Shown here: in pieces, positions 8,999 through 21,026 of the stretch | How the letters are laid out: every line of letters begins with the position of its first letter | Numbering within the stretch: the stretch's first letter is position 1 | Notes under the pieces: model-generated | What the model saw: the letters and a program-made list of their open reading frames with translations, nothing else | Told to the model about the DNA's origin: nothing | Database searches by the model: none | Program-made: the position numbers and the translations under genes | Assembly: GCA_035530415.1 (NCBI GenBank) | Contig: DATKUV010000042.1 | Span: forward strand, 1-27,284 | Origin: Candidatus Nanoarchaeia archaeon | GTDB lineage: Archaea; Halobacteriota; Methanosarcinia; Methanosarcinales; Methanocomedenaceae | DNA length: 27,284 nucleotides | Reading direction: 5' to 3'

Positions 8999-10639
8999 AT
9001 GGCAGGACAATTAGGAGGACAGCCAATATACATTTTGCGCCAGGGTACGGAGCGTTCCCGCGGGAAAGAAGCACAAAATAGTAACATCATGGCAGCCAGA
9101 GCAGTAGCTAATGCGGTACGCACCACATTGGGTCCCAAAGGAATGGATAAGATGCTGGTGGATGGAATGGGCGATATCGTCATCACCAATGATGGTGCCC
9201 AGATCTTGAAGCAAATGGATATCGAGCACCCGGCAGCCAAAATGGTGGTCGAAGTGGCAAAGACCCAGGACGATGAAGTAGGGGACGGTACCACGTCAGC
9301 CGCTGTGCTGGCAGGAGAACTGTTGAAAAAAGCTGAAGAACTGCTCAATATGAATATCCATCCGACCATAATAGCAGCCGGTTACAGGATTGCCAGTGAT
9401 GAAGCCAAAAAGATCCTTAATGGAATGACGAAGGTGGTAACTGAAGAAGATAACGATCTTTTGTTGAAAGTTGCAGGTACTGCCATTACAGGTAAAGGTG
9501 CAGAGAGTGCAAAAGAGAAACTCTCAAAGTTGGCAGTAGCAGCGGTACTATCAGTAGTTGAGATGGATGATGGTCACAAAGTCGTGGATCGGGATAACAT
9601 CAAACTGGAAAAGAAAGTAGGCGCCAGTGTGGAAGATTCTGAACTTGTTGAAGGTATGGTAATAGATAAAGGGCGAGTACACCAGAACATGCCCAAAACA
9701 GTTGAAAACGCTAAGATACTGTTGCTCAATGCCGCTGTGGAATTTCAGAAGACCGAAATGGATGCAGAGATCAATATTACTTCTCCCGATCAATTGCAGT
9801 TATTCCTTGACCAGGAAGAGAAGATGCTCAAAGACAAGGTTGACACTATTATTGCCAGCGGCGCTACTGTCCTGTTCTGCCAGAAAGGTATTGATGACAT
9901 GGCCCAGCATTACCTGGCAAAGGCAGGTATTTTTGCAGTTCGCAGGTTCCTGAAAAGCGATATAGAGAAAATGGCCAGGGCCACCGGAGCCACCATTATC
10001 AATAATATGAACGAGATCTCAGAATCAGACCTGGGCTTTGCCGGTCTGGTGGAGGAGCGCAAGGTAGGTAACGCAGACACCACTTATGTAACAAAATGCC
10101 ATAACCCGAAAGCTGTATCCGTGGTGTTAAGGGGCGGTACCGAACATGTAGTTGATAATGTGGAGACCGCATTCGAGGATGCCACCAGAGTTGTTGGAGT
10201 GGTAATAGAGGACGGACTAATCGTAGCAGGCGGCGGTTCACCTGAAATTGAACTGGCACTTCGCCTGAAAGAGTATGCAACTACCCTTAAAGGAAGGGAA
10301 CAACTGGCAGTTACTGCCTTTGCAGAAGCTCTCGAAGTCATCCCACGCACCCTGGCTGAGAATGCAGGATTGGATCCCATCGACAAACTGGTGGAAATGC
10401 GCAGCCAACACGAAAAGGGTGTGAAATCTGCAGGCCTCAATGTATTTACAGGTGATGTGATCGACATGTGGAAGGAAGGTGTGGTCGAACCCCTGAGGGT
10501 AAAGACCCAGGCAATAAATTCCGCAACTGAAGCGGCTGTTATGATATTAAGAATTGATGATGTCATTGCCAGCAGCAAATCAGGTGGAATGCCAGGCGGA
10601 ATGCCCCCAGGCGGTATGCCTGATATGGATTTTGATTAA
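8999..10639 (+). CDS. ths: Thermosome subunit (group II chaperonin)
   Basis: Contains '[12 protein letters not shown]', 'ITNDGA', 'GDGTTS' and 'GGGSPE', with a C-terminal GGM repeat tail. RBS AGGAGGA at 8981-8987. Confidence 0.98.
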
Positions 10640-15104: not shown

Positions 15105-16442
15105 ATGGCAATCCATCCAATTGAATATCGGTACGGTACTCCTGAGATGAAGCAGGTATGGAGTGAAGAATCAAAACTTAACAAACTTCTCCTGGTAGAA
15201 GCTGCATTGGCAAAAGCTGAAGCAGATGTTGGTATGATACCCAAAACGGCAGCAGATAAAATAGCTGAAAGTATAAATAGCGTTAAACTTGAACGGGTCA
15301 ATGAGATAGAAGACGAGATCAACCATGATATGATGGCAGTCGTACTGGCCCTGTCTGAGAGGTGCGGGGATGCTGATAAGTGGGTACATTTCGGCGCCAC
15401 GTCAAATGATATTCTAGATACTCAGTTGGCTTTGCAGATCAAGGACAGCATCAAATTGTTGCGCCAAAAAGCCATTTATGTCAGGGACGCTCTGGTTGAT
15501 AAAGCTGAAGAGCATAAAAATACCGTATGTGTGGGCAGGACCCACGGCCAGATCGGTGTACCGACTACCTACGGACTACGTTTCGCGGTATGGGCCAGCG
15601 AGATGGACAGACATCTTCAGAGGCTGGATGAATTGGAACCCAGGGCGGCAGTGGGTCAGATGACGGGGGCCGTGGGTACACAGGCTGCTTTCGGGCCTGA
15701 CGGTATAGAGATCCAGCGCAGGGTTATGGAATATCTGGACCTGGGCAGTGTGGAGGTTTCCACACAGATCATACAGCGGGATCGGCATGCTGAATTTGTT
15801 ATGTGGATGGCCAATACTGCCACTACTCTTGATAAGATATGTGTGGAATTGCGTAGTCTCCAGCGCAGTGAGATCGCTGAAGTAGAGGAGAGTTTCGGCA
15901 AAAAACAGGTGGGATCGTCTACTATGCCCCACAAGCGCAACCCCATCAAGAGCGAGCAGGTATGTGGACTGGCCCGGATAATCAGGGCAATGGTAGAACC
16001 TGAACTGCTCAATAATACCCTGTGGGATGAGAGGGATCTGACAAATAGTTCAAGTGAGAGGATAATCTTCCCTGAAACCTGTGTGTTGACAGACCACATC
16101 CTGAAGCTGACTGAAGGCATCGTCACGAATCTAAGATTTTATCCCGAGAACATCAAGCGCAATCTGAGCCTGTTGAATGGTCTCAATATGGGTGAAGCTG
16201 TGATGATTGAACTGGCAAAACGGGGTATGGGCAGGCAGGAAGCCCATGAGATCGTGAGAGTATGTGCTATGGAAGCCCATGAGGCAGGGCTGCATATGAA
16301 GGATGTGTTGATGTCAAAGGTCGAAGTTACCGAATATATCAGTGCCGGTGAAATTGAAGAGATCATGGACCCGGAAAAGTATATCGGGACAGCAGTGGAG
16401 CAGGTGGAAGCTGTGGTGGGGAGAATAAGGAATAAATTATAA
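15105..16442 (+). CDS. purB: Adenylosuccinate lyase
   Basis: Contains 'HFGATSND', 'GRTHGQ' and the fumarase-superfamily signature 'GSSTMPHKRNPIKSE'. Confidence 0.98.
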   Translation: MAIHPIEYRYGTPEMKQVWSEESKLNKLLLVEAALAKAEADVGMIPKTAADKIAESINSVKLERVNEIEDEINHDMMAVVLALSERCGDADKWVHFGATSNDILDTQLALQIKDSIKLLRQKAIYVRDALVDKAEEHKNTVCVGRTHGQIGVPTTYGLRFAVWASEMDRHLQRLDELEPRAAVGQMTGAVGTQAAFGPDGIEIQRRVMEYLDLGSVEVSTQIIQRDRHAEFVMWMANTATTLDKICVELRSLQRSEIAEVEESFGKKQVGSSTMPHKRNPIKSEQVCGLARIIRAMVEPELLNNTLWDERDLTNSSSERIIFPETCVLTDHILKLTEGIVTNLRFYPENIKRNLSLLNGLNMGEAVMIELAKRGMGRQEAHEIVRVCAMEAHEAGLHMKDVLMSKVEVTEYISAGEIEEIMDPEKYIGTAVEQVEAVVGRIRNKL

Positions 16443-16687
16443 ATTATTAATATTTTTTTCCATCCTCTGCTTTTATAGTTTTGACTATTCTAATGAAATA
16501 ATCTATCAATAATGTAAAAAAACGCTTTTTTTTTGATTTAGAAGGATAATGAAGTATTATGGGGCGTTATAAAGGGTTTTAAAGTTTCATGGAATTTAAA
16601 AATTTTAAAAACTAAAATAATGTATATTTATTTGAACATTTTATTAGTCCATACAAGTCTTTCAAATATGAAGGGAGGTGAAAATAT

Positions 16688-16969
16688 ATGAAAATAAGAA
16701 CAATTTTGGGAGTACTGCTGGTCCTTGCGTTAGTGTTGGGTTCTACAGGAGTTGCTGTTGCAGCTAGTGTTTGTCCAAATCCAGATTGTCCAAATGAGGA
16801 TTGTCCAAATGAGGATTGTCCAAATGAGGATTGTCCAAATGAGGATTGTCCAAATGAGAATTGTCCAAATGAGAATTGTCCAAATGAGGATTGTCCAAAT
16901 GAGGATTGCCTAAAAGAATATTTGAGTCCAGGACCTCATGGCAATCATGGCAATGGTCGTGGTAAATAA
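16688..16969 (+). CDS. Secreted Cys-rich tandem-repeat microprotein, (CPNED)n
   Basis: Strong RBS GGAGGTG and a Sec-type signal peptide ending AVAA. The mature part has ten Cys spaced C-x4 and a 'YLSPGPHGNHGNGRGK' tail. Confidence 0.85.
   Translation: MKIRTILGVLLVLALVLGSTGVAVAASVCPNPDCPNEDCPNEDCPNEDCPNEDCPNENCPNENCPNEDCPNEDCLKEYLSPGPHGNHGNGRGK
16771..16920 (+). repeat. Coding 15-bp tandem repeat (TTGTCCAAATGAGGA), 9 units plus 1 degenerate unit
   Basis: Unit 1 encodes CPNPD, units 2-5 and 8-9 CPNED, units 6-7 CPNEN, and unit 10 CLKEY. There are no spacers. Confidence 0.97.
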
Positions 16970-16984
16970 TGGGCAAGATTAAAA

Positions 16985-17012
16985 GCGTGGTATAACCACG
17001 CACTTTTTTTTT
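16985..17012 (+). terminator. Hairpin plus U-tract downstream of the CPNED gene
   Basis: GCGTGGT-ATA-ACCACGC followed by a run of nine T. Confidence 0.65.
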
Positions 17013-17017
17013 GTACC

Positions 17018-17091
17018 AATAAATTGTTTAGTAAGACCAGATTCATCTGGCTGAAAAATCCAATAGGTTATCTGAGAGTGAGAAGGACAGA
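17018..17091 (+). mobile_element. ISL3-family transposase scrap
   Basis: With one frameshift at about 17062 it reads NKLFSKTRFIWLKNP(N)RLSESEKDR, resembling the ISL3 'K.TR(Y/W)(I/L)WLKNPENL(S/T)E.Q' segment. Confidence 0.4.
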
Positions 17092-17100
17092 CATTTTATT

Positions 17101-18028
17101 TTACGACTCCGTATGTATAATTTTGAACTTTTGTGTAAAAATTGTTGATAATTCCTGATGATAGTCACCTAAATTGTTGAAGAAACTGTCAGTCGCATTG
17201 ACAAATTGAATGTAATCTTCGTGATATGTGTTATTTACCAGATTGAGGTTTGGTGCATAAGGCGGTAAAAAAAGTAGATTTATGTTATTATCTTCTGCAA
17301 AAACTCGACAATACGCCCGGAATCACACGTTTCTTCTGTTAATGTTGCAATCATAAAAAAATCTTCAATATCGAGTGCTCCGAGTATATTGATTCTTTTT
17401 CTACCCGTATTGGATTTTATTATGATTGTACGTTTTTTATCTCGTGGCTGCCACATTCTTGCATTTACTACATTGCGGAGAAGGCGACAAGGATCAAAAA
17501 AGAGCAGAACCACTCCTTTTTGTTGGGAATAGTATTCTATCTGTTGGATAAAATCTTTCTGTACAGTTTCGGTTGGAGCCTTGCCTGGAATCAATCCTGT
17601 TTTATTAAAGGATAATTGAAGTTTTGTTTTTAACAAGAGCTGCACATGACTCAAATTGTACTCAATACCAAAGTTCTGCTTAATATAGTGCTGTACGTCT
17701 TTTGCAATAGCAAATACTCCTTTACCGCTTTGATTTTAAGTTCAGATAATTGTTCTTCACTTAATTTTGCTTGTCCACCATGATAATTGAGCACGAGTAA
17801 AGAGTCGATTCCACCTTTCTTGTAGTAATTAATCCAATTGGTGATGGTATTATTTGTAACCGATAAGAATTCGGCAATATCTGAATATTCCCAACCAAGA
17901 TACATGAGTTTAAACGCTTGAATGCGCTTCAGAACTTTAACAGACTTGGTTTTCGGCTCAGCAACTTTAAGTTGTTCATACTCTGCGTTTGAAATTTCAA
18001 CTCGTTGAAATGGTTCACCTTTTCTCAT
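17101..18028 (-). mobile_element. IS630-family transposase pseudogene
   Basis: HTH part 'IAEFLSVTNNTITNWINYYKKGGIDSL', then 'FFDP', 'NTGRKRINILGAL' and, after a frameshift, 'LLFLPPYAPNLNL' through the stop at 17101. A frameshift lies at about 17725. Internal deletions at about 17290 and 17238 remove the segments that normally carry the second Asp and the Glu of DDE. Confidence 0.9.
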
Positions 18029-18313
18029 ATATTATTTAATGCAGTCTTGCTAATTTTTCATACATATCTCTTGCATCTTAAATAAGAGTCCTCCTTCTAG
18101 ATATTAGTTATTTTCAATTCATCGACCAAATCACAATAATTAACCAAAACACTTGATATTTAGGTCTATTTTTTAAATATAAAGTATTATTAAGCTTATT
18201 AAACCTTTTTGCACTATTTAATACATTAAAAATTAAATAAACTTAAAGAATACATATATAATTAAAATCTTTTAGTAGTAAATATCAAAAAAGTAGAAAG
18301 GAGGTGAAAATAC

Positions 18314-18559
18314 ATGAAAATAAGAACAATATTAGTATCCTTGCTGGTAATTGGATTGATAGCAGGTTCAATTGGGATGGCTGCTGCCCGTCATGCGAAT
18401 GATTGTGATCAGACCCATGAACACGATAATGATAAAGCAGGATCATCATCCATAGTTTTACTAAGTACTGCTGACCAGGACAATGGTGACCAGGACCAAA
18501 TTCGTGACTGTGATGAAGAAACAAATCCTGATGGTGATGAACTCCATAGTGGTTGGTAA
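18314..18559 (+). CDS. Secreted acidic Asp/His-rich microprotein, paralog of 16688-16969 in the leader only
   Basis: RBS GGAGGTG. The signal peptide is 16/25 identical to that of the CPNED protein. The 56-aa mature part has 12 Asp, 4 Glu, 4 His and 2 Cys (both in DCD). Confidence 0.82.
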   Translation: MKIRTILVSLLVIGLIAGSIGMAAARHANDCDQTHEHDNDKAGSSSIVLLSTADQDNGDQDQIRDCDEETNPDGDELHSGW

Positions 18560-18619
18560 AGAAATATTCAGTTATTGAGACTGAAATATGAAAAGATAAA
18601 GAAATATACGAGTGGGGAA

Positions 18620-18709
18620 GTGGGGAAATAATTTGCCCTTCCCACAATTTTTTTCATTTTGATAATACTGGTTTTGTTTTCAGGATGCGTCTCTCAGGAG
18701 GACATGTAA
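18620..18709 (+). pseudogene. Remnant of a lipoprotein gene (signal peptide and lipobox only)
   Basis: From GTG 18620 it reads MGK*FALPTIFFILIILVLFSGCVSQEDM*. This is a hydrophobic stretch plus lipobox-like FSGC, with a stop at codon 4. Confidence 0.45.
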
Positions 18710-18743
18710 TGTCACAATGAGAGATAATAGGTAAATACGATCA

Positions 18744-20732
18744 TTAGATAATCGCGAAGAGGGCCGTGATCTCAGCCAGTCTGTCCCTATGCCCCATCAC
18801 AATCACAGTATCGTCTTCTAACAGCATATCCTCGGCCTGGGGGTTGGTAAGAATTTTATCCTCACGCTTAATGGCCAGGGCCGTGAATCCGAATTTCTTG
18901 CGCATCTGTAAATCCGCAAGTGACTTTCCGGCAGCTTCCGACCCACCTTTCACAATAAACGTATCAATTTCAATATCCATCAAATGATGTTTCAGATCAT
19001 GAATTGATCTGGGCTTATGATAAATATCCCTGAACATCTCATACCCGTCGGTTCGCACTTTTTCAACATTCTTCTGGATCTCATCCCTGGGAATGAGATA
19101 CCTTGAAAGCACCCTGGAAAATATCTCAATGGATGTCTCGAACTCTTCAGGTATCACTTCGTCTGCACCCAGGTGTATCAATATTTCCAGTTCACTAACA
19201 TATCGTGTCCGTGCGATAATATAGATGGAAGGATTAAAATGTTTAGCAGTTTCCACCATCATCCTGGTGTGAGCTGCATCAGAAATGGCTATTACTAAAA
19301 TTTTTGCTTTCTTGATATTAGTATGTTTTAATACTTCTTCCTTTGATGCATCACCGTAAATAATGGGCGTCCCTTTCTTTTTTTCTGAAATCACAGTCTC
19401 AGGGTTCATCTCAACTACCACATATGGTATATTCGTAGCCGACAATACCTTTGAGAGGTTTCTTCCATTGATACCGTAACCTGCTATGACTACATGGTTT
19501 TCGAGTCCAGGTTTTTTTGAATATTCAGGGTAATTACCAAAAGCCAGGAATTTAGGCAATTTCTTCCTGCTTAATATTTTTTCTATTCTGGGACCAACCT
19601 GGATCATAAAAGGAGTGATCATCATAGTCAATATGGCTGAGCCCAGGAATATTTGATAGATATCATAATCAAGCAAACCCCAATGTATCCCTATTAGGGA
19701 TAGCACAAATGAGAACTCACCGATCTGGGCAAGGGATAGTCCAACAAGAATGGAAGTGATGAAAGGGTACCCCATTACAACTGCAGTTAACAGGCTCAGC
19801 ATGAACTTAATTATGAGAATTATCGCAATCACAAAGAACACAGTGGCAAGATGATCCATAACAAACCCCATGTCCAGGAGCATACCTATGGAGATAAAAA
19901 ATAGACTGTTAAAAATATCCCTTAGTGGCAGGATCTCACTTAATGCCTGGTGGGAAAATTCAGATTCCGAGATAATCAATCCTACCAGAAAGGCACCTAT
20001 AGCCAGTGAAAGCCCTGCCATTGAGGTTAGCGTGGCAGTACCCAGACTTATCATCACTATACCCAGCAGGAACAGTTCCCTGTTTCGGGTCCGTACGATC
20101 TGATATAGTATAGCAGGAACCAAAAACCGGCCAGCCGCTAAGACTAATGCAACGATAACAAATGCTTTTAATATTGAAAGAACTGCCCAGGTCAAAGAAG
20201 AATCATCACTACCAGCAAGCACTGGTACCAACATGACCATAATAATGATGCTTAAATCCTGGAAAATTAATATCCCGATTGCGAGTTTGCCGTGAGGGGA
20301 TTCAACTTCACCCCTTTCGGATAGCAATTTCAATACAATAGCAGTGCTGCTGAGGGCCACCAGAAATCCAATGAATATCGAAAGTTTGGCGGGCTGGCCA
20401 ACCACCATAGCAATAAAAGCAACGACTGCAGTTGTGAGTATGACCTGCACTCCACCCCCCAGCACAATCATCCTTTTTGATCTCAGGAGTTCTTTCAGGG
20501 AAAATTCAATCCCTATGGTGAACAGAAGCAATATAACTCCGATCTCAGCAAGCAACCGGATCATGTTCTGATCATTCACCAAACCTAAAACCGATGGGCC
20601 AATCAAAACCCCTGTTAAGAGGTATCCCACTATTGGTACAACACGGAGTTTATGAAATATGAAGACGATAACCACAGACAGGCTGAATATCAAAACAAAA
20701 TCGGTCAATAATGTTATGTTTTCTGTGGTCAC
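18744..20732 (-). CDS. Kef-type CPA2 cation/H+ antiporter with TrkA-N (KTN) and TrkA-C domains
   Basis: Contains 'GVILLLFTIGIEFS', 'ALSSTAIV', 'GILIFQD' and 'QIGEFSFVL', then KTN 'VVIAGYGING' and 'IIYGDAS', and a C-terminal TrkA-C. GTG start. Confidence 0.93.
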   Translation of the reverse strand: MTTENITLLTDFVLIFSLSVVIVFIFHKLRVVPIVGYLLTGVLIGPSVLGLVNDQNMIRLLAEIGVILLLFTIGIEFSLKELLRSKRMIVLGGGVQVILTTAVVAFIAMVVGQPAKLSIFIGFLVALSSTAIVLKLLSERGEVESPHGKLAIGILIFQDLSIIIMVMLVPVLAGSDDSSLTWAVLSILKAFVIVALVLAAGRFLVPAILYQIVRTRNRELFLLGIVMISLGTATLTSMAGLSLAIGAFLVGLIISESEFSHQALSEILPLRDIFNSLFFISIGMLLDMGFVMDHLATVFFVIAIILIIKFMLSLLTAVVMGYPFITSILVGLSLAQIGEFSFVLSLIGIHWGLLDYDIYQIFLGSAILTMMITPFMIQVGPRIEKILSRKKLPKFLAFGNYPEYSKKPGLENHVVIAGYGINGRNLSKVLSATNIPYVVVEMNPETVISEKKKGTPIIYGDASKEEVLKHTNIKKAKILVIAISDAAHTRMMVETAKHFNPSIYIIARTRYVSELEILIHLGADEVIPEEFETSIEIFSRVLSRYLIPRDEIQKNVEKVRTDGYEMFRDIYHKPRSIHDLKHHLMDIEIDTFIVKGGSEAAGKSLADLQMRKKFGFTALAIKREDKILTNPQAEDMLLEDDTVIVMGHRDRLAEITALFAII

Positions 20733-20831: not shown

Positions 20832-21026
20832 TCAGTGGGTGCCGTTACTCAACATTATCACTATTAGACTGGTTGATCTCAGGTATTCAATAAACTCTCA
20901 TATTCGGGGATGCAGCAGGGGTTCACCCCCTGAAAGCATTATCTTAAGCCTGCCCATTTGCTCAAACTCATTTACTACGCGTTTGAACTGATCAAAATCC
21001 TTTATCTCCACGGAATTGTTTTTCAT
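20832..21026 (-). pseudogene. Radical SAM enzyme fragment
   Basis: Reads MKNNSVEIKDFDQFKRVVNEFEQMGRLKIMLSGGEPLLHPRI*EFIEYLRSTSLIVIMLSNGTH*. It has the GGEP motif and downstream '(S/T)NGT', with an internal TGA at 20898-20900. No CxxxCxxC was found upstream. Confidence 0.75.

Follow-up and report, generated by a model that had tools for sequence, protein, structure and literature searches.

Two small genes read in the same direction, hereafter genes A and B, flank a transposase fragment on contig DATKUV010000042.1 of a Methanosarcinales genome assembly (GCA_035530415.1; 1.94 Mb in 290 contigs, 41.7% GC, 79% complete), and we refer to the whole stretch of 27,284 nucleotides (nt) read from this contig as the window. 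An earlier interpretation, hereafter the sequence-only reading, had proposed that the pair are duplicated expression cassettes of a candidate undescribed secreted peptide family, sharing a 31-nt start block with one mismatch, 16 of the first 25 residues and loosely similar upstream DNA in front of unrelated cores. Both open reading frames (ORFs) and the block were re-found as described, and a recount of the first 25 residues again gave 16 identities. The block, GGAGGTGAAAATA[T/C]ATGAAAATAAGAACAAT, has exactly two copies in the window (16674-16704 and 18300-18330), which differ at the pyrimidine position, and none in 100 shuffles; moreover, it is conserved in every family member with DNA available. 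The upstream similarity survived removal of the block: the remaining ~80 nt (16596-16673 vs 18226-18299) align with a local score of 38, compared with 24.1 +/- 4.0 in dinucleotide shuffles (5 of 1000 reach 38) and with 16-32 against five other intergenic regions of the window, and judged by these scores it is modest but real. We conclude that genes A and B are members of a real, clade-restricted and undescribed family of small (about 50-110 amino acids, aa), putatively secreted peptides in Methanosarcinales of the ANME-2 type (anaerobic methanotrophic archaea).

Within their own genome the leader occurs in genes A and B only. A word-based protein search brought up 21 proteins related to gene A and a single one related to gene B. 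A search with a leader/family profile, the kind of test that the sequence-only reading had proposed, found 50 proteins at E <= 1e-3 (27 at E <= 1e-10) among 1.84 billion cluster representatives, all of them 46-123 aa long. About 45 of these 50 bear the same leader, MKIRTI[IVL]G.LLV.ALVLGSTG, followed by quite different, acidic and often Cys-rich cores, and no ordinary large secreted protein was among the matches, which agrees with the proposed family. A metagenome scan yielded 11 further loci; in a scan of genome contigs, where matches were confirmed against the sequence of gene A, only one locus passed. Named members are annotated at source as 'hypothetical protein' of an ANME-2 cluster archaeon or a Methanosarcinales archaeon. 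The leader was found in four of the 20 genomes that represent species of the taxonomic family, namely in both species of the own genus and in two of the eight of a second genus, with one or two copies per carrying genome; these copy and genome counts are lower bounds, many members lying on short contigs. With so few copies, the diversity of cores lies between populations and not within a genome, and in this respect the sequence-only reading needs correction. Pfam and NCBIfam gave nothing above cut-off for genes A and B and ten relatives, no family member was found on the viral contigs searched, and the ESM atlas queried with gene A offered no lead (scores <= 0.79). Likewise, literature searches on small secreted or Cys-rich peptides of ANME, on Cys at every fifth residue and on archaeal peptides with conserved signal and hypervariable remainder found nothing relevant. 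Members can be recognised by a MKIRTIxGxLLVxALVLGSTG-type leader on a protein of less than ~125 aa and by a net-negative core rich in D, G, P, N and C, often with a GPHG-type tail. Gene A fits the leader consensus and gene B carries a divergent variant of it; the cores of both are of the described type, each with a net charge of -13.

The leader consists of MKIR as n-region, about 12 hydrophobic residues, GSTG and then small residues at -3 and -1 (AxA-type). The hallmarks of a Sec (class I) signal, i.e. a basic n-region, a hydrophobic h-region of 10-15 residues and AxA, were recognised by inspection in 55 members, and an AlphaFold2 (AF2) model of gene A, based on a 13-row alignment, has a helix at residues 2-19 and predicted local distance difference test (pLDDT) values < 50 elsewhere (mean of the whole model 49). 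We infer a classical Sec-type signal peptide with putative cleavage by signal peptidase I (SPase I) at AxA. A lipobox ([LVI][ASTVI][GAS]C) at the signal end was found in no member, any Cys that comes after the cleavage region being preceded by D, E, V or S, and the class III (prepilin) pattern of a [KR][GA] motif before a hydrophobic helix of at least 20 residues is absent from the leader, which reads MKIR-T-I and has its hydrophobic run broken by GSTG. Between genera, leader codons 1-21 show up to nine synonymous and zero to two non-synonymous codon changes (nine and zero, respectively, for L026b vs the close relative L030), and by this comparison the leader is under purifying selection at the amino-acid level. 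Its conservation is thus not just recent copying, since synonymous changes far outnumber non-synonymous ones between genera. The leader variant of gene B has 7-9 non-synonymous differences and is common to the members P0024 and P0046, which places gene B in an older paralogous lineage. The full 8-nt Shine-Dalgarno sequence GGAGGTGA has 42 sites in the 1.94-Mb genome, 12 of which lie 4-8 nt before an ATG, and codons 2-5 of the members are nearly invariant even as DNA; a rare full Shine-Dalgarno and such near-invariant codons fit a strongly translated gene. Further, assembled contigs from four of four metatranscriptome runs (chosen for holding gene A) contained pieces of gene A (16674-16904), and one run contained the 3' part of gene B (18450-18600, 100% identity), with the rest of the 5.8 kb compared with RNA contigs empty but for one purB piece, which suggests transcription of genes A and B above their neighbours.

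Statistics on the cores cover 55-59 members. Their median length is 43 aa and their composition is dominated by D (19%), G (12.6%), P (11.1%), N (8.7%), C (7.8%) and E (5.8%), with a negative net charge in every core (-3 to -15). Most cores are built of short tandem repeats. The number of Cys is odd in 35 cores, even in 19 and zero in one, and this prevalence of odd counts argues against a disulfide framework. Several short motifs exceed their means in composition shuffles by far, namely DxDxDG-like motifs (27 vs 4.6), DGDG (22 vs 1.5), GP[HN]G (21 vs 0.6) and CPNx[DEN] (57 vs 1.2). Single linkage of the cores by BLAST resulted in a group of 30 including gene B, a CPNxD group of 13 including gene A, one further pair and 15 singletons. 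A GPGPHG-type tail ends many members, in one genus together with a hairpin in the 3' untranslated region (UTR) that is conserved with it as DNA, and the last 23 aa of gene B align with the tail of P0020 (E 1e-5). The claim of unrelated cores therefore holds for genes A and B, which show no significant similarity there (BLASTP E = 5.9), while in the family as a whole the cores are pieced together from a small set of enriched modules and share a GPHG-type tail. Two observations on repeats stand beside these statistics. The 65-aa protein P0057 (L042, 1232-1684, GCA_975960265.1), which P0058 resembles, combines a different signal peptide with a core of DCPNPDCPN repeats as in gene A, so the CPNxD repeat exists outside the MKIRTI family; its gene adjoins those of a DUF5667 protein and of another small secreted acidic peptide. 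In the extreme case of low complexity, a member of 108 aa (L055, 3001-3327, JGI contig Ga0255419_10124) has a core made wholly of (ECNN)n and (AYNN)n tetrapeptide arrays.

The coordinates of both cassettes and of the DNA between and behind them are collected in Table 1. Upstream of this region lie purL and purB, downstream a Kef-type antiporter gene followed by a fused Ni/Co energy-coupling factor (ECF) transporter gene and a cbiQ-type partner, and relatives (L030, L043 and the same-genus genome G001) have intact PEBP/YbhB-family lipoprotein genes at the position of the relic listed last. An Rfam scan of 16300-18800 found no riboswitch or leader RNA, returning only a chance match to MIR408 (E 0.73).

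Table 1. Genes, repeats and regulatory or mobile elements in and around the two peptide cassettes of the window.
Feature	Position	Strand	Description
Gene A AT-rich promoter/5'UTR	16596-16673	+	TATA-like TTTAAAAAT at start; kept in same-genus genome G001; putative promoter function
31-nt block (gene A copy)	16674-16704	+	Full Shine-Dalgarno GGAGGTGA, spacer, ATG, codons 2-6 (KIRTI)
Gene A	16688-16969	+	ORF of 93 aa; signal peptide 16688-16765, (C-P-N-E/N-D)n core, tail ...SPGPHGNHGNGRGK (SPGPHGN)
Coding tandem repeat in gene A	16771-16908	+	15 nt x 9.2 copies, 95% matches
Terminator of gene A	16985-17010	+	7-bp GC hairpin + T8
IS630-like transposase fragment	17100-18046	-	Between both cassettes; ORF 17651-18028 HTH_23, ORF 17280-17654 partial DDE_3 (Pfam)
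Native intergenic segment, used as gene B upstream region	18046-18297	+	88-91% identity to relatives without gene B
Gene B cassette (ribosome-binding site, ORF, ~40 nt)	18298-~18597	+	Single 300-nt block, present or absent
Gene B	18314-18559	+	ORF of 81 aa; divergent leader variant 18314-18388, acidic His/Cys core, tail ...DGDELHSGW
Terminator of gene B	18604-18656	+	GTGGGG...CCCAC hairpin + T7; common to relatives without gene B
PEBP-family lipoprotein gene relic (signal/lipobox region)	18650-18709	+	...LVLFSGCVSQEDM then stop in the window vs ...MFFSGCVSQEN... in the 166-aa PEBP ORF of G001

Comparison of alleles and loci shows how the cores change. Alleles of gene A encode 88, 93 or 98 aa on otherwise near-identical contigs with identical gene B, and copy-number differences of repeat units are also found in other members (CCEDGP, DRDQ, GD and ECNN/AYNN). 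Alleles of gene B differ by a 15-nt indel, four non-synonymous and two synonymous changes, all located in the core; their 25 leader codons are the same. At L026, where a cassette of ~1.9 kb was duplicated in tandem, the flanks are 88-98% identical, including non-coding DNA and the next gene, while the cores are 32-50% identical. Moreover, two genes at different loci, one located after purB and the other beside transposases, share a head of 143 nt (76 nt of 5'UTR and 67 nt of leader) at 98.6% identity and have unrelated cores behind it. The purB-adjacent locus itself holds different core types depending on the population (CPNED x 9-11, CPNPD x 4, or a 26-aa repeat x 2), which BLAST puts in different groups. 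The 300-nt block of gene B (18298-~18597) is absent from the same-genus G001 and from the closer relative L030, both of which keep 250 nt upstream of it (88-91% identity) and the terminator hairpin; the alignment with these two breaks exactly at the ribosome-binding site of gene B and resumes at the hairpin. The block may have been gained in the window or lost twice elsewhere, as far as this alignment can tell. The neighbouring IS630 fragment is absent in the syntenic L004/L043 and in L030 and present in L034/L035, and contigs with gene B also carry the IS630 fragment. From these alignments, core turnover is a combination of slippage at a variable number tandem repeat (VNTR), localised replacement and shuffling anchored in the head. 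The proposed duplicated expression cassettes with swappable cores are thereby supported by the near-identical head on unrelated cores, the duplication at L026 and the indel of gene B that starts at its ribosome-binding site. A diversity-generating retroelement was ruled out, the variants being indels and changes in repeat number and not A-specific substitutions in a region of fixed length.

In a second genus, a gene for an ATC_hydrolase-like protein of 164-183 aa with a Cys-rich C-terminus (L026 7450-10915, JGI metagenome contig; L023 8570-9064) always comes after the peptide gene and a divergent ABC ATPase gene before it, and a tandem duplication covers the unit [ABC 5' fragment - peptide - ATC_hydrolase-like]. 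As a family-wide partner the ATC_hydrolase-like gene was rejected: its place behind the peptide gene was seen in one genus, and the own genome has only weak, unrelated matches elsewhere. One such weak ATC_hydrolase-like ORF, on contig C184 of the own genome, adjoins a gene (L040, 132-644) whose 170-aa product has a membrane helix at its N-terminus and five CxxCH motifs; this is a small pentahaem cytochrome c of a type typical of ANME.

Weaker genome matches (loci L006-L008, L010, L012, L017, L018 and L020) led to a wider Methanosarcinales family of ~105-135-aa proteins with the signal MKTRT.TGILIVALVA.SAGVAAA-QYG, three to four [FY]VDxDGDG[IV]CDN repeats and a C-terminal RD.DGDGIPNGQDDDYEPPRDG module. 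The leaders of both families align with an hhalign probability of 96%, and P0037, P0016 and others in the MKIRTI family keep the C-terminal module RDDDGDGIPN.DDDY.PP, which is identical to the wider family at 16 of 19 positions. On the strength of these two alignments the families are related. Proteins of the wider family had no match in Pfam or NCBIfam, a Protein Data Bank (PDB) sequence search with the family profile gave nothing, and atlas neighbours of the family include TSP3_bac clusters. On contig C181 of the own genome, an ORF of 29 codons lies on the minus strand ~520 nt from the end (reverse-complement position 9806) behind a GGGGGGTGA ribosome site; it encodes only a signal peptide ending in AVAQYGN, followed by a stop, and has the appearance of a truncated wider-family gene; apart from this ORF the assembly lacks the wider family.

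We hold at medium confidence that the products of genes A and B are Sec-exported, disordered, polyanionic and thiol-bearing peptides for cation binding, mineral control or metal capture. ANME-2 drive sulfate-dependent methane oxidation, raise local alkalinity and sulfide and need much Ni and Co. Each cassette is self-contained and comprises an AT-rich putative promoter with full Shine-Dalgarno, a near-invariant Sec-type signal, a hypervariable core and a GPGPHG-type tail with hairpin and T-run terminator. In the mechanism that we propose, the product would be exported by Sec and cut by SPase I, releasing a disordered, strongly polyanionic peptide of ~40-70 residues in which Asp, Gly, Pro and Asn abound and Cys is usually unpaired, and whose activity would result from bulk chemistry and not from a fold. 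Outside the cell such peptides could bind divalent cations, i.e. Ca2+ via DxDxDG loops resembling thrombospondin type-3 (TSP3) repeats and soft metals via thiolates and His, and this binding could buffer metals or control mineral nucleation on the surface of the cell or consortium. If composition and short motifs suffice for function, the core would be free to turn over by slippage and by recombination anchored in head and tail, while the head would be held constant because expression and export of the acidic cargo depend on it. A bolder version is unlikely in our view: these would be the first genetically encoded archaeal peptides for mineral or metal control, tuned in repeat number by slippage and with a frozen signal read by an export or processing partner, which block carbonate, sulfide or silica nucleation on ANME-2 or capture pore-water Ni/Co for the neighbouring ECF importer. 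ANME consortia have been reported in silica-rich envelopes, and carbonate was not found attached to cells (PMC4100016; PMC10743459).

Several points weigh against the interpretation as exported cation-binding peptides. Secretion, cleavage and cation binding are features predicted from the peptide sequences, and the assignment to Sec and SPase I draws on inspection and the AF2 helix. A plain Sec substrate would not usually have so extremely conserved a signal peptide, and this conservation could mean a specific partner. The core of gene A with its CPNED repeats lacks a DxDxDG loop, and searches of genes A and B, eight further members and two proteins of the wider family against Pfam TSP_3/TSP3_bac and dockerin had no match at E <= 1, so that the resemblance to calcium loops is at the level of motifs only. 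Since only four of the 20 species-representative genomes have the leader, the role is not essential for the clade. Finally, the RNA pieces are assembled contigs from runs selected for gene A, and DNA carry-over is possible.

The sequence-only reading had likened the conserved leader with variable core to precursors of RiPPs (peptides made by the ribosome and modified after translation), and had noted that no intact modifying enzyme is adjacent. In that case the N-terminus would double as recognition leader, and Cys would be modified, ahead of export or in its course, by a radical S-adenosylmethionine (SAM) enzyme as in CefA/CefB or by an MNIO as in bufferins, giving a metallophore or antibiotic. 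Gene A matches NCBIfam NF038108 (CefA) at E 1.4e-5, metal-binding RiPPs with a signal peptide exist in the bufferins (PMC11626156), and the close relative L030 has a radical SAM gene and a 74-aa ORF 3.5 kb downstream. However, the CefA score of 24.9-25.1 bits stays below the cut-off of 30 and is explained by the Cys periodicity of gene A, the best match to the partner radical SAM NF038107 in the 79% complete genome has 57.9 bits against a cut-off of 600 and lies on other contigs, and MNIO (PF05114/DUF692) was matched neither in this 79% complete genome nor in the 12 neighbourhoods examined. Neighbours vary by genus (purB/PEBP/Kef, ABC ATPase/ATC-hydrolase-like, or transposases), and many cores have zero or one Cys. 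The radical SAM gene of L030 was rejected as maturase, having a generic core, no SPASM hit and a position on the opposite strand beyond Kef, and being deleted in the window, which keeps only a relic of 164 nt while both peptide genes are intact. This relic (20837-21000) is 93% identical to the middle of the 406-aa radical SAM gene of L030, where the gene and the 74-aa ORF are intact, with the Kef antiporter on one side and the Ni/Co ECF transporter on the other; the remainder of both is lost in the window. A RiPP leader thus gives way to a Sec-type signal with no maturase conserved beside the members or found in the 79% complete genome, and we consider RiPP precursors quite improbable.

Conserved signals with hypervariable mature parts and strain-level variation at one locus would also be expected of diversifying interaction peptides, for instance archaeocin-like antagonists, signals or peptides for partner recognition with cores under positive selection, and the gene B alleles, with four non-synonymous vs two synonymous changes, lean in this direction with tiny numbers. 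We regard this as unlikely: the cores are all polyanionic and of low complexity, have no stable Cys framework and mostly odd Cys numbers, unlike known toxins or bacteriocins, no gene for immunity, a receptor or a dedicated transporter is conserved nearby, and the variants differ mainly in the number of repeats, hence in length and not in a binding surface. By analogy with the size-variable Vlp/Vsp lipoproteins of Mycoplasma, the peptides might instead form a coat or decoy, kept on the cell by an uncleaved helix or attached by the tail, whose anionic brush would shield the S-layer from viruses or minerals. Such a coat could account for a head conserved including 5'UTR and signal, for VNTR size variation and for the association of members with insertion sequence (IS) elements and duplications, but it is rather improbable given a hydrophobic core of only about 12 residues followed by GSTG and AxA, as is typical of cleaved signals, the lack of a lipobox and of a homopolymeric phase-variation tract in the promoter, and one or two copies per genome. 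Very improbable, finally, are subunits similar to type IV pilins, with a class III signal, an assembly helix and a variable C-terminus exposed on a filament. The conserved hydrophobic N-terminus with variable C-terminus is the pattern of pilins and AF2 predicts an N-terminal helix, yet R-T stands in place of a [KR][GA] prepilin-peptidase site, the helix is short and broken by GSTG, the disordered, acidic C-terminal parts have no globular domain, and there are no pilus assembly genes nearby.

An exported, clade-specific family of polyanionic Cys peptides, as we favour it, with fragments in RNA libraries, would offer a concrete and cheap candidate for the management of surface cations and minerals by uncultured ANME-2, and its peptides are accessible to chemical synthesis. 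It also represents a clean natural archaeal example of a signal peptide that evolves slower than its cargo, with the mechanism of turnover visible, in a family that Pfam and NCBIfam miss and that is annotated only as 'hypothetical protein'.

Among known systems, bufferins are likewise small, contain Cys, carry a Sec signal peptide and have a proposed role in metal binding outside the cytoplasm. They are defined by an adjacent pair of MNIO (DUF692) and DUF2063, conserved Cys converted to thiooxazoles and a folded core (PMC11626156), whereas our genome has no MNIO and the peptides described here have no conserved neighbour, variable Cys numbers and a disordered core. Gene A resembles CefA in having Cys at every fifth residue, with a sub-threshold score, and differs in that the partner radical SAM enzyme is missing and a Sec signal replaces the RiPP leader; this periodicity is absent from most members of the family. 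Closer to home, the MKIRTI and the wider family are both small, secreted, acidic and Asp/Gly/Cys-rich, occur in the same order and have homologous signal peptides. The wider family is larger in protein size, present in more families of the order and conserved over its full length (74% mean column identity), whereas the MKIRTI family has kept only head and tail and varies in the middle. The thrombospondin type-3 repeat is built on acidic loops of the DxDxDG type, after which Cys-Pro often comes. Similar to TSP type-3 and TSP3_bac (PF02412, PF18884), the cores are enriched in such loops ~6-fold over composition, and unlike these repeats the peptides are free-standing, 40-70 residues long and predicted to be disordered, with a CPNED repeat lacking the loop in gene A. 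In conotoxin superfamilies and in the Vlp/Vsp proteins of Mycoplasma, the signal (in Vlp also the 5'UTR) is highly conserved and the mature region hypervariable, and Vlp size varies by slippage of tandem repeats. A match of P0020 to the Conotoxin Pfam family remained below threshold (E 0.026), and these systems belong to different domains of life, have no sequence relation to the MKIRTI family, which lacks their Cys framework or lipobox, has anionic cores and comes in one or two copies per genome instead of a large array. What the archaeal peptides have in common with conotoxins and Vlp/Vsp is the combination of a conserved signal with a hypervariable mature part.

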